The notes beneath the pieces are model-generated. The model did not search any database, was not told where the DNA came from, and saw nothing but the letters and a program-made list of their open reading frames with translations. A stretch of DNA of 20,218 nt from a virus. Within the stretch, counting starts at the first letter, position 1, and each line of letters opens with the position of its first letter. Shown here piece by piece: positions 1,513 through 14,098 of the stretch. The position numbers were made by a program, and so were the translations under genes. The DNA is taken from the UHGV virus genome UHGV-1746005, one strand, 5' to 3'.

Positions 1513-2352
1513 TCACGCATCGCTATCCAACAGCAAATCATCTGCGCGGGTGCGATCAAACGTAGGCGTTGCTTTCACAATAGTGCCGCCCGGCGTTGCA
1601 GTGATCGGGGCGTTAATCGACGTAACTTCAGTAAGCGAAGTTGTATCCGAAGTTTCAAACCAGCAGAATGCTTTTTCGGTATCAGAAATCTCATTCAAAG
1701 TGATCATGTCGGCCTGTTCATTTACAACAACCGACAAATAGAGCGTAAGCCCATCAAACACTATATGCAGTGGCAGTAGAGGCTTTACGAACTGATTAAA
1801 CTTTCTGAGAATTTCTTCTGTAATTGCGGACTGATCTATCGTTCCAGTAATACCCATTGTCCGGGCCAGGTCGTTTATGGGAATACTGATCATTCCTCTG
1901 GAAGTCAGAAACATCTCGCCGAATGTGCCGCCGGTGGTTTCCAGTGTGCTTTCTGGAATCAGGACCGTGCCATAGGGATGACGTTCAAAGTCCACCGGAG
2001 CATATATGGGATCCCATAAAACCGATATACCGTTAAATTCGCGATAAATTGTCTGGTTTATAGGGCGTTCAGTACCCTTAAAATGGATCTCATCAAACCG
2101 CTGTTGTAACAACATCGGAACGGAAGATGAATTCGACGTTCTGATAGTAAAAAACTGGCCAAGTTCATTTGTCCTAGTCTCCAGATCCTCCTTGCTCATG
2201 GAGAAAATAGACTTCCGGTTGGTAATTCGCTCCAACCATGGGTCAACAAAGGTGTCCATCATTGACTGAACCAAATCAGCCAATGATTTATAAAGTAATG
2301 ACTTTTGCTTAGCTGATGTAAGCCGGTTATTAAACCAGGAACGTTGCATCAC
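1513..2352 (-). CDS. Baseplate/tail morphogenesis protein, 279 aa (function unassigned)
   Basis: Start overlaps the stop of the upstream 477-aa gene (2349-2352), indicating translational coupling within the tail operon. Confidence 0.55.
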   Translation of the reverse strand: MMQRSWFNNRLTSAKQKSLLYKSLADLVQSMMDTFVDPWLERITNRKSIFSMSKEDLETRTNELGQFFTIRTSNSSSVPMLLQQRFDEIHFKGTERPINQTIYREFNGISVLWDPIYAPVDFERHPYGTVLIPESTLETTGGTFGEMFLTSRGMISIPINDLARTMGITGTIDQSAITEEILRKFNQFVKPLLPLHIVFDGLTLYLSVVVNEQADMITLNEISDTEKAFCWFETSDTTSLTEVTSINAPITATPGGTIVKATPTFDRTRADDLLLDSDA

Positions 2353-3782
2353 TCCTCCTCATACGAAATATTAAAGGTGGAGTTTTCTGTATCCAGATAA
2401 ACGAAATCGTAAAAGCCGTTGGACTCATTCCACTCGACAAATTCCAGATAAAAGTCGCGGAAATAACCCAGCGTTTCGATAAATGCCCAAACGTCTTTTT
2501 TCTTGATTAGGATGTACTTGCCGACACGGTTCGGATCAAAGAAAGTTGAGTCACGCCCAAATTTTGTTTCCAGTGCCGACTTCAGCTCATCAGTCACGTT
2601 CTCAATGGTCAGGCTTGCCGATATCCGCCCAGTGATGGTGATCTTAAAGGGTAGTTTTCTGACCTCTTTATACGAGAATTTCTTGTTCAACTCATTCGGC
2701 ACCTTCTTAAAGGCAGCCAGGATCATTTCTTCAAGCTCTGACTGGCTTTTGTTTGGATGCCATCCTGAAATAAATATCTTATTGATATTCCGAACATTAT
2801 AAGCACCATCTAATTTCTCTTGCTGGCCTTCGCCCCATGCCTTTACCCAGGACAGTCCCGGGATGTTACGCACCAGAAAATACGTATAGTCCCCGCCCCA
2901 TACGACCTGATCATCATAGGCAAGGTAATATTGTGCACGATTACGTGTGATCTCCGTTGTTTCGGCATCGGTACCTGCGGTTATGGGTGTCGTTGTCTTA
3001 ACTGAAATCAAATTAGCTAAATTAGCCGCAGAATCGACAGGAGTCAGGTTTTGGCCAGCAACCAGGGTTATATCTCCGTTGGTGCACCATACCTTAAGTG
3101 TAATGGTCGAGCCTTCTGGCGGTATTTGCCCAATTAGCCCATCACCGAATCGAACCCCCAACTGCTCGGATGGCTTATAAAACTCAACGTAGACCTGGCT
3201 TTTACTACCGGCTAACCGGAACATAGTGCTGGAAGACCACTGCGTGGTCTTACCATCGGTCGTCACGAATACTTCCAGCTTATAGCAGACAGCAGTGAGA
3301 GCCTTTGATAACACGACTTCCAGAAATTCTTTGGCTGCCGTAACGGTATATGTCACCTCCTGGATTTCCAACTGTGCCACTTCTACCGTACCGGTGCCGT
3401 CAACCAACCTGCATACATCCATAGTCATGTAAGGGTACTGGTCGTCAGATATTAAAGGCATATTTTTGGGGATTACCGCTGGGGCATCTTCACTTGTGGC
3501 GGTGATCTCAATCATCCCCGATGACGGTGTTGGCTTGGTACCAACGTAACTATTCGTTTCTGCCGCTGCCAAGATAGAGGAACGCCGCGTCGCGGTCGAT
3601 ATAAAGCCTTCAGCCAGCGCCGCATCGGCATACTGAAAGCACCTGTAGACAATCTGGGTAATAAACAATGTCAGCATCGAGACAAATTGAGAGCCGACAA
3701 ACTTCGACCAGAATGAATCTTTCTCGACAAGCTCTTCAAACTCTGCACGAATACTGTCTTTAGTCGGTGTTGTTTTACTCAT
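2349..3782 (-). CDS. Baseplate protein, 477 aa (possible gpJ/gp6-like wedge protein)
   Basis: 4-nt overlaps with both neighbours (3779-3782, 2349-2352); sits directly after a gp25/GPW-like small protein, matching the W-J-I order of contractile-tail baseplates. Family assignment is weak. Confidence 0.55.
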   Translation of the reverse strand: MSKTTPTKDSIRAEFEELVEKDSFWSKFVGSQFVSMLTLFITQIVYRCFQYADAALAEGFISTATRRSSILAAAETNSYVGTKPTPSSGMIEITATSEDAPAVIPKNMPLISDDQYPYMTMDVCRLVDGTGTVEVAQLEIQEVTYTVTAAKEFLEVVLSKALTAVCYKLEVFVTTDGKTTQWSSSTMFRLAGSKSQVYVEFYKPSEQLGVRFGDGLIGQIPPEGSTITLKVWCTNGDITLVAGQNLTPVDSAANLANLISVKTTTPITAGTDAETTEITRNRAQYYLAYDDQVVWGGDYTYFLVRNIPGLSWVKAWGEGQQEKLDGAYNVRNINKIFISGWHPNKSQSELEEMILAAFKKVPNELNKKFSYKEVRKLPFKITITGRISASLTIENVTDELKSALETKFGRDSTFFDPNRVGKYILIKKKDVWAFIETLGYFRDFYLEFVEWNESNGFYDFVYLDTENSTFNISYEEE

Positions 3783-4138
3783 AGCACCACGTCCTGTGTG
3801 ATAGTTATATCCCTGATACGAATGGATATTTTCAACTTATCAAAAGCATCTCCCTCGGCTACTGACAAGCCAGAAATCGGTATGTCAGGTAAATCTACCG
3901 TCAGTTTTTGCAACAGCATTGCCTCAACCGCAATTTGAACATGCGACAAGTTGGTCGGTTCGTGTTTAAACTGCGGTAAAACATTGCCCCATGACGGATC
4001 TCCGTATACCTCACCCTGATAAGTGTTTAGCCACTCATATAAACGAGCGCCCCAGGCCTCCTCCTGGGACTCATACGTTTTTACGCCGGATAACTCCAGC
4101 GTCAGCAAAGGATCAATTTCGTTATTGTTGGCCATCAA
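3779..4138 (-). CDS. Small baseplate protein, 119 aa (possible GPW/gp25-like)
   Basis: Size and motif YGDPSWGNVLPQF resemble the gp25/GPW G-x-P-x-F/W-G-x-x-L signature; start overlaps the stop of the SLT-domain gene (4135-4138). Confidence 0.5.
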   Translation of the reverse strand: MMANNNEIDPLLTLELSGVKTYESQEEAWGARLYEWLNTYQGEVYGDPSWGNVLPQFKHEPTNLSHVQIAVEAMLLQKLTVDLPDIPISGLSVAEGDAFDKLKISIRIRDITITQDVVL

Positions 4139-7100
4139 TCAACTCTCGCGTAGTCATTCATCAACGGATCATCAATTGACAGTGGCACCGTGCGCATAAC
4201 GCCCGGTTGAGGCGTGCTGACCTTTACGACAGTTCCCTGGCCTTTCGCCGAGTCTTTAGTGTGCTCTTCAATCCTGGCAAGCAATGAGGTCATCTGCGCA
4301 AACAGCCGCTTCGTTTCACCATCAAGTGAAACGGTATTATCAGCCAACTGCATTGTCGGCTTGGCACCGGAGCCGCCAAGGTCACTAATAACCTGTCCGT
4401 CTATCTGCATACGACCGGTTGGTTGCTGCAAATCGTTGGCGGCAGTCGTCACCAGGGACGTGGAGGCTGGTTCAGGCGCATTATTTTTCCGCATCCCCGG
4501 CGAGTTGCGGAGTTTATCGAATAGTCCATCAATCCCCATTTGTGCGCCGAGTTGGTCAAAGTAACTTGAGTTGCTGGCCACCGGACGCGCCTCTTCAACT
4601 GGCATCGGAGTATCAACATACACATTGCCAGCTGCTGTTGCGGTCCCCTTCCCTCGTGCACGTTCTTCGAGCGTTCCCTGAACGACTTCCCGACGCATAC
4701 CCCGGCCATTCATGAATTTGTTGACCAGATCGTTAACACCAACAGCATTGCCAATTTTGTCTACCAGACCGCCTTTCTCAAACGGGCTATCACCAGGGGT
4801 AAACGCCAGGCCAGTAGACTGATCGATAACAGCGTTATCAGGCAGCTTTTCGTGAATTGCTGGTGCGCTATGATCTACCTTAGAGCCATAAACGGCACCA
4901 TTATTGAGCATCTGCTGATACCCTCTGACACGAGTAACATATTCGCCGGTACCGGCGACTACTCTCCCCTTATCAACATGCCCCATACCAGCATGATAGG
5001 CAGCTATTGCACGACCCTGATCACCGTTATAACGGTTCATCAGCATACTTAGGTATCTGGCGGCACCATCAGCTGCTTTTCGTGTATCCATGGCATCAGC
5101 ATCGCTGAGTCCAAGATCCTCCCTTGTACCTTTAGTGATCTGAAAAGCCCCAAGGGCAGATGAAAGTTTGTTCCCGTTTTTGTCTACTGGATTTCCAGTT
5201 CTCTGGCCTGCACTAGACTCTGCGGATGCAACTGCTGACAGAATCCCTTTTTCAAGCCCATACTTACGTTCAAGCTCATCAAAATAATCGGCATTGTCAG
5301 AAATCCATTGGTATCCGGCAGCATTTAATTTTGGCAAAGAAACATCCTTGCCATTGTTAAATCGACGTTTATCTATCTCATATGCACTTAATGCTTCCTC
5401 CTTACCTGTAGCAGACTGGCCCAAGGCAGCATCAATTGTTTGTGCTGCTTTATTTCCTGTTTCTACGGCATTTGCCTTGATAATCTGATTGGCAGTTTCT
5501 TTAACTGTTTTATTGCTATCTTTCGCTGTATCTAGGGATGCATTTACAACACGAGTGACAATATTACCCTTTTTAGGGGTATATTCAGTTTTAGGAGCAT
5601 TGCCCTCCTGACGTTCTTTAGCAGGTGTTTTTAATTCAGGTTTAACCTCTTTCGCATCCGCTTTTTTGACTAGCTTTGATGCAACCCAGGCTACAGGGGT
5701 GCTCTGAACAGCGGCATCTACAACTTCACCTGAAAGCTCTTTTGCGGCACTCCATAGATTACTGCCAGCCTCTTTAATGTATTTCCCTGGGTTCTTAATG
5801 AAATCAATTGCACTATTAATTGCATCACTGAAAACCTGTTTCAGGTTATCGACAGTAAAGAAGTTTTTGATGGCGTCTAATTTTTCGTTCAGATTCTTTG
5901 TAGTGTCACTGAACCAGGCTGAAATAGCATCGCCAATCTTGGCTGTGTAATCGTTGAATGTTGTGGATATGGTGTCACCAAGGTTAGAAATATATGTTTC
6001 TAAATTGGTAATCCCACTATCAATGGCCTGGGCAATACTTTCCGTCGAAAATGATTGCAACATATTGCCGATATCCTCAAATCCAAGTGATTTGAGAACG
6101 CCACCAATGGCATTGCTAATACCAGATACCAGTCCTCCCATATCGAGAACGTTAGCCAGTGTATAAGCCGCTTTTTGCTGAAAAGATGGATCTTCCCCAT
6201 CCTTAAGCCCAAAGGTCCGACGTTGTGCTTCTGTATCATTCCAACCGGTTACCGCATCATAGATACCTCCAGCCACCGTGCCGACTAGCGGAATTGCGCG
6301 TAAAGCCCCCTTTGCAAAAGCCTTAACACCTAGTTTCTCCAATCCCTTAGTTGCAAGTTTTCCGGCACCGCGAGTAGCCAATTCGCCAGCTTCTTTGGCA
6401 GCAGCTTTTTTCCCACCAAAGCCCAATAAGCTTGCAACTTTTTTTATACCTAAAGCGCCTAGTGCCATCGAGCCAACTTTCTTTAGTGCCCCACGGCCAA
6501 AAATAAGGGAAGCAATACCACCGGCCCCCTTCCCTAACAGGCTAAATAATTTGGACAGCAAGCCGCCCTTCTTTTTCCCGGTGTTTTTGGCTATCTGATC
6601 AAGGGCGCTGAGAATCTTGTCATTGCCCTCTTTAATTTCGCTGGTCTGATCCTGAAGTTCCTGAACCGTCCGTTTTTGGGTGTTAACCTGAACGACATCG
6701 GCACTACTTTGCGATTTACGCCTAAAAAAACCTTTTCTACGGCTGTTATCGTCATTGCCACGAATCACATCGGCAATTGACTTTCTGGCACCATTAAGCG
6801 AACCGCCAACTTCTTTTGATATTCCGCCAAGCTCCTTTCCTGCTGCCCACAATGGACCAGCAACGGCATAACCTAAAGCATCGACGGCACGAGTCTCTGA
6901 AGGGTTACCTATGCCTTCAGCTACTTTTGACAGTTTTTTTAATAAACCCGATTCAGCATTTAGACGCTCATCATCCTCTTTGCGCCTGGCCTTTTCAGCA
7001 CGTTCAGCACGGGCATCTTCCGCTGCGGCCTTACTCCCTGACTTTCCAATAAAACGACCACGCGCATCGCGTTGGTTTTGGCTTTTTTGCGCACCGCCTT

Positions 7101-7812
7101 TTTGACCGAACATTTCGCGAGCGTGTTCGGCTGCTTCGGTCCGTTGCGCCTTTACATCTTCTGTTATAGCCTTCCTGCGTCTTTTTTTACCCTTTGGTGT
7201 AGTTGATTTGGCCTGCTGTTCCTGTTGAGCAATGCCCTCCTGAACTACACGAGAAACGTCCCCTAAATTAAGCCGTTTCATTGCGTCAACAATAGGGTCT
7301 ACTGATGGCGCATTGGCCACAAAGTCTGGCCGGGAATTTTCGATTGTTCGATTTAATGCCGACACACTGCGAGATACTGGGTCAACCGTTGCAACGCGTT
7401 CCCCTTTCAAATCACGAGCGAGTTTGACCGTTTCTAACCGCTGTGCTTTAACATCCTCTGTTATTGCCTCTCTTCGTCTATTTGGGGGATTGTGCGCTGT
7501 TGGTGCAGCCTGCTGTTCACGGTTAGTGACTTTGTCCTCCCGTATACGAGAAACGCCCCCTAAATTAAGCCGTTTCATTGCGTCAACAATAGAGTCCACT
7601 GATGGCGCATTGGTCACAAAGTCAGGACGTGAATTTTCGATTGTGCGATTTAATGCCGACACACTGCGAGAGACAGGATCAACTGTAGCAACTCGCCCCC
7701 CTTTCAAATCTTCAACGGCTTCCCGAATACCTGCAAGCTCTTCCAGCTCTTTTGCGCTGGCGGTTTCAACCGTCCTTATCACATCGTCAATGTTGGCGTT
7801 TTTTCTTTCCAT
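4135..7812 (-). CDS. sit: Tail tape-measure-like protein with internal lytic transglycosylase (SLT) domain, 1225 aa; resembles P1 Sit
   Basis: SLT hallmarks in residues ~835-960 (DNA about 4930-5310): catalytic-type E-S in AVASAESSAG, GAFQITKGT, AAYHAGMG. Central glycine-rich hydrophobic segments typical of tape-measure proteins; basic coiled N-terminus with a tandem internal duplication. Confidence 0.8.
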   Translation of the reverse strand: MERKNANIDDVIRTVETASAKELEELAGIREAVEDLKGGRVATVDPVSRSVSALNRTIENSRPDFVTNAPSVDSIVDAMKRLNLGGVSRIREDKVTNREQQAAPTAHNPPNRRREAITEDVKAQRLETVKLARDLKGERVATVDPVSRSVSALNRTIENSRPDFVANAPSVDPIVDAMKRLNLGDVSRVVQEGIAQQEQQAKSTTPKGKKRRRKAITEDVKAQRTEAAEHAREMFGQKGGAQKSQNQRDARGRFIGKSGSKAAAEDARAERAEKARRKEDDERLNAESGLLKKLSKVAEGIGNPSETRAVDALGYAVAGPLWAAGKELGGISKEVGGSLNGARKSIADVIRGNDDNSRRKGFFRRKSQSSADVVQVNTQKRTVQELQDQTSEIKEGNDKILSALDQIAKNTGKKKGGLLSKLFSLLGKGAGGIASLIFGRGALKKVGSMALGALGIKKVASLLGFGGKKAAAKEAGELATRGAGKLATKGLEKLGVKAFAKGALRAIPLVGTVAGGIYDAVTGWNDTEAQRRTFGLKDGEDPSFQQKAAYTLANVLDMGGLVSGISNAIGGVLKSLGFEDIGNMLQSFSTESIAQAIDSGITNLETYISNLGDTISTTFNDYTAKIGDAISAWFSDTTKNLNEKLDAIKNFFTVDNLKQVFSDAINSAIDFIKNPGKYIKEAGSNLWSAAKELSGEVVDAAVQSTPVAWVASKLVKKADAKEVKPELKTPAKERQEGNAPKTEYTPKKGNIVTRVVNASLDTAKDSNKTVKETANQIIKANAVETGNKAAQTIDAALGQSATGKEEALSAYEIDKRRFNNGKDVSLPKLNAAGYQWISDNADYFDELERKYGLEKGILSAVASAESSAGQRTGNPVDKNGNKLSSALGAFQITKGTREDLGLSDADAMDTRKAADGAARYLSMLMNRYNGDQGRAIAAYHAGMGHVDKGRVVAGTGEYVTRVRGYQQMLNNGAVYGSKVDHSAPAIHEKLPDNAVIDQSTGLAFTPGDSPFEKGGLVDKIGNAVGVNDLVNKFMNGRGMRREVVQGTLEERARGKGTATAAGNVYVDTPMPVEEARPVASNSSYFDQLGAQMGIDGLFDKLRNSPGMRKNNAPEPASTSLVTTAANDLQQPTGRMQIDGQVISDLGGSGAKPTMQLADNTVSLDGETKRLFAQMTSLLARIEEHTKDSAKGQGTVVKVSTPQPGVMRTVPLSIDDPLMNDYARVD
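7150..7743 (-). repeat. Tandem in-frame duplication (2 x ~297 bp, 99 codons) inside the N-terminal region of the SLT/tape-measure gene
   Basis: Near-identical blocks at ~7211-7413 and ~7508-7710 (e.g. CCCCTAAATTAAGCCGTTTCATTGCGTCAACAATAG...), with weaker similarity extending to ~7150 and ~7743. Protein repeats: KGGRVATVDPVSRSVSALNRTIENSRPDFV(T/A)NAPSVD(S/P)IVDAMKRLNLG. Confidence 0.85.
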
Positions 7813-7893
7813 GATCTTATCGCCTACCGCTTCGGTTTAAGTTTTTCTTCCAGTTTCTCCAACAGGAAAAACGCATAGGATTCAGTGAGCCTT

Positions 7894-8775
7894 TCAGCGT
7901 CCTGAATCGGTATACCCCCATACAAAACCAGGTTGGATACTAAGGTCTGATAGCTTTTCAATCCCCACCTGTGGAATGAAGTCGGTAGCCCGAAAGGGCA
8001 CCCACAGACGGGTAAACGCACCCTCTGTGGACTCCTTTTTGTCCTGGTTTGGGCATTTATGCGGCGGGAGACGAAGACGCATTTCACCTTTATCGATGTA
8101 GCACGGTAAACCATGTTCGAGCTTTTCATGAGCCAGTCGGATGTGTGCCGCCAGCTTCATAAATTCAGTATCAATGGCCATCCGTTTAATCGTTTCATAA
8201 CGACGCTCAGCCTGATCTTCACGAGTACCGCTAACATCGTTATAAAGCTCACACTGATAAGCGAATTCCCAAAAACGCAAATCAACGATCGCTTCTTTGA
8301 ATTCCGCGTCGTCTTCAGGTGGCAATGCTGCACGGCGCATCTCCAGCATTTCCATTGCCCAACCATCAAGCGGCACGATACGCCATTGATAAGGCACGCC
8401 CTCTACAGACACCTCAATATCGTCAATGAACGGTTCCACTTCCAGGACCTGGATATCTTCAGCCAGAGCATTCATATCGCAATCGTAATAATGCTCTTTA
8501 CCGCAATGTTTACAGGTGTAGGTGAATGTCTCGACCGGTGTTTCACGGGAGCCGGTAAATATCCACCATAACGCGGTAATCCGGTCCTGCGCCGTCCATG
8601 TCAGGGGATCATGTTTCGCGGGTTCAGCCAGCAAGGCTTTTAAATATGCCGTTGTCTGTTGTTCTTGTTCCTCCGGTGTTATCGAGTTGAAACGCATCGC
8701 ATCAGCAATATTTGGCTGACGGAACTGGATCAATTCAGTTGGCCGCGATGGTAGCGGGAAAAGGGGTAAAAGCAT
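7894..8775 (-). CDS. Tail morphogenesis protein, 293 aa, directly upstream of the tape-measure gene (possible assembly chaperone; unassigned)
   Basis: Position immediately 5' of the tape-measure gene; contains a CxxC...C cluster (CKHCGKEHYYDC). A +1-frame ORF (7824-8129) overlaps its 3' end. Confidence 0.5.
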   Translation of the reverse strand: MLLPLFPLPSRPTELIQFRQPNIADAMRFNSITPEEQEQQTTAYLKALLAEPAKHDPLTWTAQDRITALWWIFTGSRETPVETFTYTCKHCGKEHYYDCDMNALAEDIQVLEVEPFIDDIEVSVEGVPYQWRIVPLDGWAMEMLEMRRAALPPEDDAEFKEAIVDLRFWEFAYQCELYNDVSGTREDQAERRYETIKRMAIDTEFMKLAAHIRLAHEKLEHGLPCYIDKGEMRLRLPPHKCPNQDKKESTEGAFTRLWVPFRATDFIPQVGIEKLSDLSIQPGFVWGYTDSGR

Positions 8776-11595: not shown

Positions 11596-11624
11596 TTGAC
11601 CTTTTAATCGTTCAGGCTTATAGT
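11596..11624 (+). promoter_or_regulatory. Sigma70-type promoter for the leader/icd/ant transcript (-35 TTGACC, 17-bp spacer, -10 TATAGT)
   Basis: -35 at 11596-11601 and -10 at 11619-11624 with optimal spacing; ~40 bp downstream of the operator-like 17-mer and ~240 bp upstream of the Icd-like start. Confidence 0.45.
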
Positions 11625-11699
11625 TCCACCGTCGTAGCAAATTCTGCGACCGGGTTTGACAGCCTGAATGTTAGTGCGGACAACCGCAGATTTCCGATA

Positions 11700-11815
11700 T
11701 TGCGGTATTTTTGTGTCCGTAAACCGCGTTACGCCCGAATTATGGTGGGGCGTGATGGGGAGGCTTCGGCCTGCTGGTTTCACTAACGCCAGTCTGTCAA
11801 CCCTGTCACGTCCTG
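11700..11815 (+). ncRNA. Candidate c4/CI-type antisense regulatory RNA within the leader (boundaries approximate)
   Basis: Structured GC-rich leader: hairpin ACGCCC...GGGCGT (11731-11753), UUCG-tetraloop hairpin AGGC-TTCG-GCCT (11761-11772), and tandem CTGTCA elements (11794-11799, 11803-11808) complementary to TTGACAG copies at 11655-11661 and 11823-11829. Confidence 0.3.
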
Positions 11816-11870
11816 CCACCTGTTTGACAGCGGGTAGCAGGTTGTTAAACCTGTTAGTGAGGCCGTAACT

Positions 11871-12092: not shown

Positions 12093-12152
12093 AAAAAACC
12101 TCTCGTCACCCGTAATGAAATAGCCGAAGCGATCGCTTTGCATACTGCCTGT

Positions 12153-13133
12153 ATGCCGACACGGGAGATCCCCGGCGCAATTGCTAACTATTTCATGATA
12201 ACCAGGCGTTTTTATACCCGAACAGATAAGGCTGTGATCAACAGGCTACTGATAGCCGAGATCAGGGATTATTTGATTGAACAAGGACGTCTACGTTACG
12301 CAACAGTGGCAGCAGAAATAAGAAAGGAGGCACATAGAATGACCGGTAATAATTTGAATGTTGAAAAAACAGCACCTGTTACGTCAGCTACGCCAGCACC
12401 AGCCGTGAATATCATCCCCAACACCGGAGACACAATCGACAGCCAAACATTGTTGAAGATGGTCAATGAGGCACGCAAGTTATGTGGAGAACCAGAGGTT
12501 AGAAACAATAAATTCATCGAAAAAATACTCGATGAACTTGAAGGTGAATTTTACACAAAAAGTGCAAAATCCCATGGCACAAGGGCTGGGCGCTCTTTTG
12601 AGGTCATCACCATGACCTACAAACAAGCCCTGCGAGTCGCCGCGCGCGAGTCAAAAGCGGTCCGCCGTTCGCTGATCGACAAACTGGAAGAATTGCAGCA
12701 GGCAAACTCCCCTGCCCCATCGATCCCCCAAACATTACCAGAAGCTCTACGCCTGGCTGCCGAGTTGGCAGAACAGAAAATGCAGCTGGAACAACAGCTG
12801 GTGGCCGCAGCCCCTAAAGTCGATTTTGCCGACCGGGTATCAGTGGCTAATGGAATCCTGATCGGGAACTTTGCAAAGGTCGTTGGACTTAAGCAAAACG
12901 CCCTTTTCTCATGGTTGCGCCAGAACGGCATTCTCATGGCTTTTGGTGCGCGCAAAAACGTACCGCGCCAGCAGTACATTAACGCCGGGTATTTCACGGT
13001 GAAAGAAGTGGTGCTGGATGATGAAAATGGCTACCAGATACGGCTGACGCCCCAATTAACGGGTAAAGGCCAGCAGTGGTTAACTCGCAAGCTACTTGAT
13101 GCTGGTTTGTTAAAACCAGTAGCAATAGGTTAA
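12153..13133 (+). CDS. ant1: Phage antirepressor with C-terminal KilAC (ANT) domain; long form 326 aa from ATG 12153, nested in-frame short form 264 aa from ATG 12339
   Basis: C-terminal PQTLPEALRLAAELAEQK...NFAKVVGLKQNALFSWLRQNGIL...GYFTVKEV...LTGKGQQWL matches the KilAC domain and is paralogous to the C-terminus of the next gene. The internal ATG at 12339 has a very strong SD (AAGGAGG); the upstream in-frame part has no obvious SD. Confidence 0.7.
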   Translation: MPTREIPGAIANYFMITRRFYTRTDKAVINRLLIAEIRDYLIEQGRLRYATVAAEIRKEAHRMTGNNLNVEKTAPVTSATPAPAVNIIPNTGDTIDSQTLLKMVNEARKLCGEPEVRNNKFIEKILDELEGEFYTKSAKSHGTRAGRSFEVITMTYKQALRVAARESKAVRRSLIDKLEELQQANSPAPSIPQTLPEALRLAAELAEQKMQLEQQLVAAAPKVDFADRVSVANGILIGNFAKVVGLKQNALFSWLRQNGILMAFGARKNVPRQQYINAGYFTVKEVVLDDENGYQIRLTPQLTGKGQQWLTRKLLDAGLLKPVAIG

Positions 13134-13297: not shown

Positions 13298-14098
13298 ATG
13301 CAACAAACATTCAATGCGGATATGAATATATCAAACCTTCATCAAAATGTCGATCCTTCAACCACTCTGCCCGTTATTTGTGGTGTTGAAATTACGACCG
13401 ACCGCGCTGGCCGTTACAACCTTAATGCTCTACACAGAGCGAGCGGACTCGGTGCCCATAAAGCGCCAGCTCAATGGCTAAGAACGCTGTCAGCTAAACA
13501 GCTCATCGAAGAGCTTGAAAAAGAAACTATGCAGAATTGCATAGTTTCGTTCGAAGGCCGTGGCGGCGGCACTTTTGCCCATGAATTGCTCGCTGTGGAG
13601 TACGCAGGCTGGATTTCTCCCGCGTTTCGGCTGAAGGTAAACCAGACATTTATCGACTATCGAACCGGAAGATTACAACCTGCTATTCCGCAGAGTCTCC
13701 CTGAAGCTCTCCGTTTGGCTGCCGACCTGGCAGAGCAAAAGCAACGGCTGGAGCAAAAAATGCTTATGGATGCACCTAAAGTCGAATTCGCTGAACGCGT
13801 TGCTACCGCCAGCGGGGTTCTAATCGGCAACTATGCCAAAGTGCTCGGCCTGGGCCAAAACTATCTCTTCACCTGGTTGCGTGATAACGGAATTCTGATC
13901 GCAACCGGTGAACGCAGGAACGTCCCCAAACAAGAATACATATCCCGTGGGTATTTCACCCTTAAAGAAACCGTGATCGATACAAGCAATGGAAGCAGGA
14001 TTTCTTTCACGACTCGTATAACCGGCAAAGGTCAGCAGTGGCTGATGAAGCGATTGCTTGATGCTGGTGTGCTGGTACCTGTCGCGGCAACGCGCTAA
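13298..14098 (+). CDS. kilA: KilA-N + KilAC domain protein (266 aa), P1 KilA-like
   Basis: N-terminal KilA-N signature (GRYNLNALHRASG...WLRT...GGGTFAHELLAVEYAGWISPAFRLKV); C-terminal KilAC shared with the upstream antirepressor (PQSLPEALRLAADLAEQK...GYFTLKET...ITGKGQQWL). SD GGAG; the length equals the 266 codons I recall for P1 kilA. Confidence 0.8.
   Translation: MQQTFNADMNISNLHQNVDPSTTLPVICGVEITTDRAGRYNLNALHRASGLGAHKAPAQWLRTLSAKQLIEELEKETMQNCIVSFEGRGGGTFAHELLAVEYAGWISPAFRLKVNQTFIDYRTGRLQPAIPQSLPEALRLAADLAEQKQRLEQKMLMDAPKVEFAERVATASGVLIGNYAKVLGLGQNYLFTWLRDNGILIATGERRNVPKQEYISRGYFTLKETVIDTSNGSRISFTTRITGKGQQWLMKRLLDAGVLVPVAATR

Follow-up and report, generated by a model that had tools for sequence, protein, structure and literature searches.

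The tail gene sit of a P1-like phage-plasmid contains, close to its start, two in-frame tandem copies of a 99-codon unit, and this unit is present once, twice or three times among the relatives of phage P1. The DNA considered here is a stretch of 20,218 nucleotides (nt) from the UHGV virus genome UHGV-1746005 (the window). It is a segment of a P1-like (Punavirus) phage-plasmid: the 1-kb piece around the repeat is 95–99% identical at the nt level to P1, P7, RCS47, SJ46 and phi456. Judging from the sequences that we compared, the repeat is a common allele, old and under selection, in a natural one-, two- and three-copy polymorphism among the relatives of P1. We lean towards the explanation that it is a copy-variable in-frame module behind the leader of the Sit protein, which would be kept by selection, reshuffled by unequal crossover, and would extend a predicted tail ruler. 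The features on which this proposal is based are the following.

4135..7812, minus strand: sit, an open reading frame (ORF) of 1225 amino acids (aa) coding for the P1-type structural injection transglycosylase, a predicted tail tape-measure protein (phrog_2533; 95–99% nt identity to P1-like sit).
7711..7812, minus strand: single-copy N-terminal leader of Sit (MERKN...REAVE, aa 1–34), outside the repeat and without similarity at an offset of 99 aa.
7414..7710, minus strand: repeat unit 1 ('A'), Sit aa 35–133, with the core at 7546–7710 and the A-type linker, AITEDVKAQR and the LETVKLAR junction at 7414–7545.
7117..7413, minus strand: repeat unit 2 ('B'), Sit aa 134–232, with the core at 7249–7413 and the B-type linker (..KSTTPKGKKRRRK), AITEDVKAQR and TEAAEHAR at 7117–7248.

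The start-to-start distance of this direct repeat, in the N-terminal part of the Sit ORF, is exactly 297 nt, that is 99 codons, and the reading frame is kept. A repeat search of the window aligns 7202–7413 with 7499–7710 (212 nt at 83% identity). At an offset of 297 nt, the best segment of 165 nt contains 149 matches, compared to 74 for the next-best offset in sit and at most 75 in 20 codon-shuffled genes: the repeat is far beyond chance. It was recovered by the direct-repeat search and the offset scan; Tandem Repeats Finder, used with its default settings, reports no array in the window. The register of the units was set by protein similarity. The initial annotation, which described two near-identical units of about 297 bp in tandem and in frame at 7150–7743, was right about the period, the frame and the N-terminal location, but its coordinates are displaced by 33 nt from the best register: the first 11 codons of that choice (ELAGIREAVE..) are not repeated. 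Nor are the units near-identical, since they share 231 of 297 nt (78%; 66 positions differ) and 72 of 99 aa (73%) in the best register, and 222 of 297 nt (75%) in the displaced one; an identity of about 90% is reached in the 165-nt core only.

Each unit consists of a 55-aa core, a basic and proline-rich linker of 26 aa, the invariant motif AITEDVKAQR and a terminal xExxxxAR. The cores of the two units have 51 of 55 aa in common (93%). The linkers read IREDKVTNREQQAAPTAHNPPNRRRE and VVQEGIAQQEQQAKSTTPKGKKRRRK, and the 132-nt 3' part of the unit, which contains the linker, is 62% identical at the nt level. The longest exact run common to the two units is 36 nt. The linker of unit 2 is of the type found in single-copy P1 and P7, and the leader that precedes the repeat does not differ from that of P1 at any of its 102 nt. 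Sit matches the phrog_2533 profile with E = 0, in two stretches, aa 133–1225 being aligned to profile positions 34–1130 of 1130; the extra unit falls outside this single-copy profile. Within the repeat, we found no promoter-like site, terminator-like sites at chance level only, and no Rfam match.

The initial annotation had proposed a comparison of copy number in related P1-like genomes, and the relatives do differ. One unit is present in P1 (Sit of 1140 aa) and P7 (1130 aa), two in the window (1225 aa), phi456 (1231 aa), 673R5 and pMTY1586 (1229 aa), and three in 813R1, pRIVM_C029554_1 (with an intact ORF of 1338 aa), pEC15-3 and pXH987-OQX; in the literature that we searched, 813R1 and 673R5 figure only in a preprint on phages in the genomes of clinical isolates. 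The intact three-copy ORF of 1338 aa is annotated in NZ_CP068934. The Sit proteins form an allelic length series of 1124–1140, 1225–1231 and 1338 aa, for one, two and three units, respectively.

The multi-copy alleles are common. The N-terminal region of sit is found in 479 plasmids of PLSDB, and 137 of them (29%) have a unit–unit junction, hence at least two units. Linker A is also found in 137 PLSDB records; since the two counts are the same, linker A is never seen in this database as a single-copy allele, only in multi-copy alleles. Eight records have two places with the junction and linker A, which puts the three-copy alleles at 8 or fewer of the 137 multi-copy plasmids. Among 5426 complete genomes of E. 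coli, 470 contain sit and 198 the unit–unit junction (42% of those that bear sit). More than 130 independent complete plasmids, of E. coli, Salmonella, Shigella and Klebsiella, have the same two-unit structure, and a sample of IMG/VR yielded 18 two-copy and about 61 one-copy alleles. Of the N-terminal segments, 66 of the 70 with one copy, 22 of the 24 with two and 3 of the 4 with three are open; the lengths of the others are off by 1–3 nt, and these exceptions look like sequencing errors. The two-copy phage phi456 makes plaques (PMC10967188). The same accession of PmgB, whose gene is directly upstream of sit, adjoins both one-copy and three-copy sit, so that a change in copy number needs no compensatory change in PmgB.

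The divergence of the two units indicates that both are under purifying selection and have long been kept at the protein level. Between the cores, the ratio of nonsynonymous to synonymous divergence (dN/dS) is 0.10, with a dS of 0.35 (11 synonymous and 4 nonsynonymous codon differences). In the AITEDVKAQR motif, 6 of 10 codons differ, all of them synonymously and none nonsynonymously. The linkers are further apart (dS about 0.9, dN 0.63). The low dN/dS of the core and the purely synonymous changes in the motif suggest that both copies have long been retained by selection on the protein, and such diverged and long-maintained copies exclude a recent slippage event. Linker A is 38% diverged from every B linker, which implies that the A unit is probably of old or foreign origin. 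The mean pairwise difference is 0.5% for linker A and 5.7% for linker B, and linker A copies are at least 99% identical in 135 of the 137 PLSDB records. This ten-fold lower diversity suggests that the two-unit haplotype has spread recently in the sampled population.

For each of the 66 sites that distinguish the two units of the window, we recorded across relatives whether the base is that of unit 1 (A) or that of unit 2 (B). The middle unit of the three-copy alleles is a chimera, made of a B core and an A linker, as would be expected if unit 2 of one molecule had undergone an unequal crossover with unit 1 of a second one. Two different switch points occur among these chimeras, one between unit positions 97 and 114 and the other between 155 and 166, so that the expansion to three copies occurred at least twice. 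In the single-copy alleles, the 5' end of the core is of type A and the remainder of type B, and several switch points occur (in the alleles that we labelled L037 and L069, for example); some of these alleles (L037, L067, L068 and L081) have the exact B-linker variant of two-copy alleles; both observations fit contraction or allelic exchange. In the two-copy alleles, A tracts and B tracts alternate within the core of unit 1, which is thus a mosaic. Such mosaic patterns fit recurrent unequal homologous crossover, or gene conversion, within the conserved core of about 165 nt.

Coding repeats of the minisatellite type, or variable number tandem repeats (VNTR), change copy number by unequal homologous recombination. 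The repeat of Sit resembles them in that the frame is kept, the copy number varies between strains, and the expanded or contracted alleles contain chimeric units. It is unlike them in that there are only one to three copies, and in that the units at the two ends have linkers (A and B) that differ strongly, rather than forming a homogeneous array.

The effect that we propose for the repeat depends on the function of Sit. The P1 record annotates Sit (YP_006507.1) as 'structural injection transglycosylase, putative tail ruler', and recent papers on P1 treat it as the tape-measure protein (PMC9024508, PMC12810830). P1 Sit has been detected in virions by mass spectrometry (LC-MS/MS), and its N-terminal two-thirds are predicted to be helical; gp6, the only other ruler candidate, is the baseplate hub and is too short (PMC9024508). 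The authors of a study by electron cryo-microscopy (cryo-EM) assign Sit to the lumen of the tail and baseplate, where its density is not resolved in the maps (PMC12810830). That the window is P1-like DNA (95–99% nt identity) carrying a predicted tape-measure gene with an SLT domain, as first annotated, is supported by the identification of sit, by the PF01464 match and by the wording of the P1 record. The domains of Sit and the neighbouring genes that matter in this respect are listed below.

4969..5286, minus strand: SLT lytic transglycosylase domain of Sit, aa 843–948 (Pfam PF01464, E = 2e-14).
6301..6567, minus strand: Gly-rich hydrophobic segment of Sit, aa 416–504, of which relatives have two allelic forms, with an indel of 8 aa (from the sequence and the alignment).
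7894..8775, minus strand: pmgB, directly upstream of sit, proposed tape-measure chaperone (phrog_1854; PMC9024508).
8790..9401, minus strand: tub, tube initiator or tail-tube-like protein (phrog_1842; P1 annotation; PMC12810830).
3779–4138, minus strand: pmgA, baseplate wedge gene directly downstream of sit (phrog_1896 / phrog_1369 for the pmgA/bplA pair; P1 annotation).
2349–3782, minus strand: bplA, baseplate wedge gene downstream of sit (same families for the pair; P1 annotation).

The gene sit is flanked by pmgB/tub and pmgA/bplA on the same strand, which confirms the synteny with P1. The position between the genes of the tail tube and chaperone and those of the baseplate is the one expected of a tape-measure gene. 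The order on the minus strand is that of the P1 record: a tail-fibre assembly gene, a gp16-like gene, bplA, pmgA, sit, pmgB, tub, pmgC, and then the sim/c4-icd-ant immunity region. The SLT domain is in the C-terminal third of Sit, as it is in the P1 Sit orthologue group.

We propose that the leader and the C-terminal SLT/baseplate end of Sit would anchor the two ends of the ruler, and that everything in between would count as length. On this view, the ruler would gain 99 residues with each extra unit, or about 15 nm at 1.5 Å per residue, or about 18–19 nm at the empirical value of P1, 1.84–1.97 Å per residue. The tube and the sheath of P1 consist of 53 rings of 40 Å, for a length of 2100 Å (PMC10304247); one extra unit would correspond to 4–5 more of these tube and sheath rings. 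A longer tail for each extra unit, which the initial annotation predicted, is plausible by analogy with phage TP901-1, whose tail becomes about 30% longer, in proportion, while the titre is kept, when the N-terminal region of its tape-measure protein is given a duplication by engineering (PMC5099701). The duplication and loss of units is also a recognised mode of evolution of tape-measure proteins (PMC3271669). A more specific version of this proposal, which we advance tentatively and hold for slightly less probable than the general one, is that natural P1-like phage-plasmids fall into three tail-length classes (about 53, 57–58 and 61–63 rings), which would be set by a head-proximal module in one, two or three copies and would be interconverted by unequal crossover.

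Several observations weigh against the idea that the repeat is a selected, copy-variable part of a ruler. To begin with, the status of Sit as the ruler is a prediction of the literature, and no tail length was found for two- or three-copy P1-like phages: the paper on phi456 has a micrograph but gives no length (PMC10967188), and the proteomics supplement does not list the positions of the Sit peptides, which might have told whether Sit in the virion keeps its N-terminus. Sit has no match to a curated tape-measure hidden Markov model (HMM) in Pfam or NCBIfam: Pfam detects only SLT, NCBIfam only a sub-threshold MltF, and a relaxed Pfam scan of aa 1–800 gives chance-level matches only. Likewise, none of the PHROGs matched by Sit is annotated as a tape measure. 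The ruler arithmetic of P1 is unsettled: the 1140 aa of its Sit span 1710 Å at 1.5 Å per residue, which is short of the 2100-Å tube, so that the relation between length and number of residues is not simple. The tube would require 1.84 Å per residue, above the value of a pure helix, and the congruence of Sit and tail was argued from a tail figure of 120 nm (PMC9024508). In TP901-1, about 127 residues of the tape-measure protein do not count toward the length of the tail (PMC5099701).

A word-indexed search for homologues of the unit outside P1-like (Punavirus) Sit returned only close, mostly partial Sit fragments, an exhaustive phmmer search of 1.84 billion representatives gave five matches, four of them P1-like and one, a Firmicute surface protein, by chance, and a sequence search of the PDB with one unit yielded no useful match (best E = 1.8). 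By these searches, homologues of the unit are confined to Punavirus Sit, and the PDB has none. A single-sequence AlphaFold 2 (AF2) model of Sit aa 1–300, which we used for secondary structure alone, consists mostly of helices joined by disordered linkers, without a globular domain; it is of low confidence (predicted local distance difference test 57, predicted template modelling score 0.19).

The unit thus has no outgroup, and the pointers to the ancestral copy number are conflicting. Considering its chimera pattern, P1 may derive from a two-copy allele by deletion; the low diversity of linker A suggests, conversely, that the two-copy haplotype is the younger one. We had considered P1 as a clear deletion product, from its A5'/B3' chimera, but the case is weakened by the ten-fold lower diversity of linker A and by the broadly mosaic cores.

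The main rival to the ruler proposal is that the repeat is real and selected but lies outside the ruler. It would be a head-proximal adaptor or docking module, whose extra copies alter valency or are slack, the length of the tail being the same; we consider this less likely than the ruler proposal. Candidate partners of such a module are PmgB, the terminator gp24, the neck, or the end of the DNA, via the basic KKRRRK/NRRR stretch. The strong purifying selection on the core and on AITEDVKAQR is what one would expect of a binding surface, yet the extreme N-terminus of Sit is the invariant 34-aa leader and not the repeat, and the AF2 model, weak as it is, shows extended helices and a disordered linker instead of a globular domain. 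TP901-1 can be cited on both sides: the N-terminal 154 aa of its tape-measure protein are essential for assembly (PMC5099701) and its uncounted residues would suit a docking role, but the N-terminal duplication did lengthen the tail. The misfit of P1 Sit to 1.5 Å per residue would be compatible with a module that is not counted, and so would the variation of copy number beside an unchanged PmgB protein; on the other hand, a tube lumen of 40 Å would leave little room for about 99 slack residues per chain.

A more radical view is that Sit is not a tape measure at all but an ejected internal protein, or a transglycosylase that acts in the periplasm in the manner of T7 gp16, in which case the repeat would be irrelevant to the length of the tail. 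Some GenBank records do name Sit 'protein inside capsid D' or 'internal (core) protein', and its PHROG matches include 'internal virion protein with endolysin domain' and 'endolysin', with no tape-measure family; the absence of a tape-measure HMM match goes in the same direction. We nevertheless find this view very unlikely: sit belongs to a tail-tube/baseplate operon, the sole other candidate, gp6, is disqualified by its size and its role as the hub, the cryo-EM authors place Sit in the lumen of the baseplate, and the protein looks like a tape measure, being long (1140–1338 aa), largely helical by prediction and endowed with Gly-rich hydrophobic segments.

An assembly artefact, either a spurious duplication or a third unit that has collapsed, is still less probable. 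The initial annotation regarded the repeat as a hotspot of assembly collapse, a concern that proves weakly supported: the units of the window share no more than 36 nt exactly, which makes a collapse between them unlikely, pMTY1586 and two contigs of IMG/VR show the same all-A/all-B pattern, and a full-length sit that is 99.8% identical is present in E. coli EC11. The only residual risk is that of a hidden third unit. Three-copy alleles exist, and their adjacent units share 255–327 nt exactly, so that a short-read assembly could conceivably collapse three units to two; however, such alleles make up at most 8 of the 137 multi-copy plasmids. Among the Sit proteins in databases, many are N-terminal fragments of 168–517 aa, marked 'partial', that lie at the end of a contig, which shows that draft assemblies often break inside sit.

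Last, the suggestion of a recent slippage or recombination event, in which a P1-type unit would have been copied in the genome of the window itself, may account for the exact 297-nt head-to-tail spacing and for the single unit of reference P1, but it is refuted by the data on divergence and distribution and has a negligible probability in our view: 66 of 297 nt differ, the linkers are only 62% identical, the synonymous sites of the linker and the motif are near saturation (the dS of the core being 0.35 and that of the linker about 0.9), no P1-type allele has linker A as a single copy, and the allele is present in 137 of 479 plasmids and 198 of 470 genomes, including more than 130 independent complete plasmids.

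The phenomenon is of a known and ordinary kind, an internal duplication in a tape-measure gene. We found no prior description of the one-, two- and three-copy polymorphism of sit in P1-like elements in the literature that we searched. Sit of P1 (YP_006507.1, 1140 aa) is the orthologue of the protein studied here, in the same operon (pmgC-tub-pmgB-sit-pmgA-bplA), with an identical leader, a B-type linker and a C-terminal part of 200 aa that is about 96% identical (10 differences in alignment columns 1051–1254). It differs in that it has one unit instead of two, and in that the SLT cassette (about 40% identity, aa 787–989) and the allele of the Gly-rich segment of the window are not those of P1. 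The duplicating tape-measure proteins described before (Belcaid et al. 2011, PMC3271669; TP901-1, PMC5099701) have in common with Sit an in-frame tandem duplication in a long protein that is, or in the case of Sit is predicted to be, helical and located in the tail lumen. However, their repeats have only 11 or 18 aa and are recognised by aromatic residues, whereas the unit of Sit is 99 aa long, with a core, a linker and a motif, is located directly behind the leader, and is polymorphic (one, two or three copies) in a single phage species complex. The duplication engineered in TP901-1 is tolerated; for the Sit repeat, an effect on the length of the tail is a prediction. In T5 pb2 and in Tmp of mycobacteriophage TM4 (cited in PMC9024508), a ruler-like N-terminal and central part precedes a peptidoglycan hydrolase domain that lies toward the C-terminus, as in Sit; the likeness is one of architecture only, with no sequence-family link detected.

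Other parts of sit are also mosaic. One such block surrounds the SLT domain.

4846–5454, minus strand: divergent cassette around the SLT domain, Sit aa 787–989 (alignment to P1, P7 and phi456).

This cassette is about 40% identical to the corresponding segment of P1, P7, phi456 and pMTY1586, whose flanks are more than 90% identical to those of the window. A cassette of the same type as that of the window is found in a single-copy Sit, the database protein that we labelled P0023 (1124 aa), and plasmids of O157:H7 and others have matches to sit (about 3375 nt, about 95% identical) with the length of single-copy alleles. The SLT module therefore assorts independently of the copy number of the repeat. 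The full combination of the window, SLT cassette and repeat, occurs in only one complete E. coli genome, that of strain EC11. The Gly-rich segment is a further mosaic block: of its two clearly different forms, with the 8-aa indel, the window and phi456 have one, and P1, P7 and pMTY1586 the other.

Some database entries have a rearranged sit. A protein of 493 aa (P0021) begins with the exact first 28 residues of the Sit leader (MERKNANIDDVIRTVETASAKELEELAG), whereas the rest of it is unrelated to Sit; a fusion by recombination or a chimera made in assembly could account for it. Another one (P0022, 1009 aa), which begins inside the unit-1/unit-2 junction (MTEDVKAQRLETVKLAR...), tracks Sit to about aa 220 and is then unrelated, is another chimeric or rearranged sit. 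In the complete plasmid NZ_CP182160.1, IS1 is inserted in sit, which suggests a defective prophage.

Regarding the region upstream of sit, a minus-strand ORF of 101 codons (7824–8129) overlaps the 3' end of pmgB in the +1 frame, and its stop is 12 nt before the start of sit; a small ORF is annotated at this place in phi456. We considered this overlapping ORF as a frameshift chaperone of the lambda G/GT type, which is unsupported, and the in-frame C CCA AAC heptamer of pmgB as a frameshift site, which was rejected because the -1 frame closes after about 30 codons. Further away, the P1 immI region has its C4 antisense RNA (RF01695) and a1b1 target element (RF03163) in intact form at 11618–11823 on the plus strand, and these are followed by two ORFs for KilAC-type antirepressors (12138–13133 and 13298–14098).

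P1 is a classic phage, used as a model and for transduction, and resistance genes are widely carried by phage-plasmids of its type. The reference sit of P1 is one of several common forms of the gene, a longer allele being present in 29–42% of natural elements. Annotators and assemblers should therefore expect length variants of 297 nt in sit, and short-read collapse is possible for three-copy alleles but not for two-copy alleles. The clean steps of 99 aa, in backgrounds that are otherwise near-isogenic, make up a ready series for asking whether Sit sets the length of the tail. If natural P1-like phage-plasmids do fall into three tail-length classes, then laboratory P1 would represent only the shortest of them, the allelic series would be the first direct proof that Sit is the ruler of P1, and it would show how a protein of 1140 aa measures a tube of 2100 Å.

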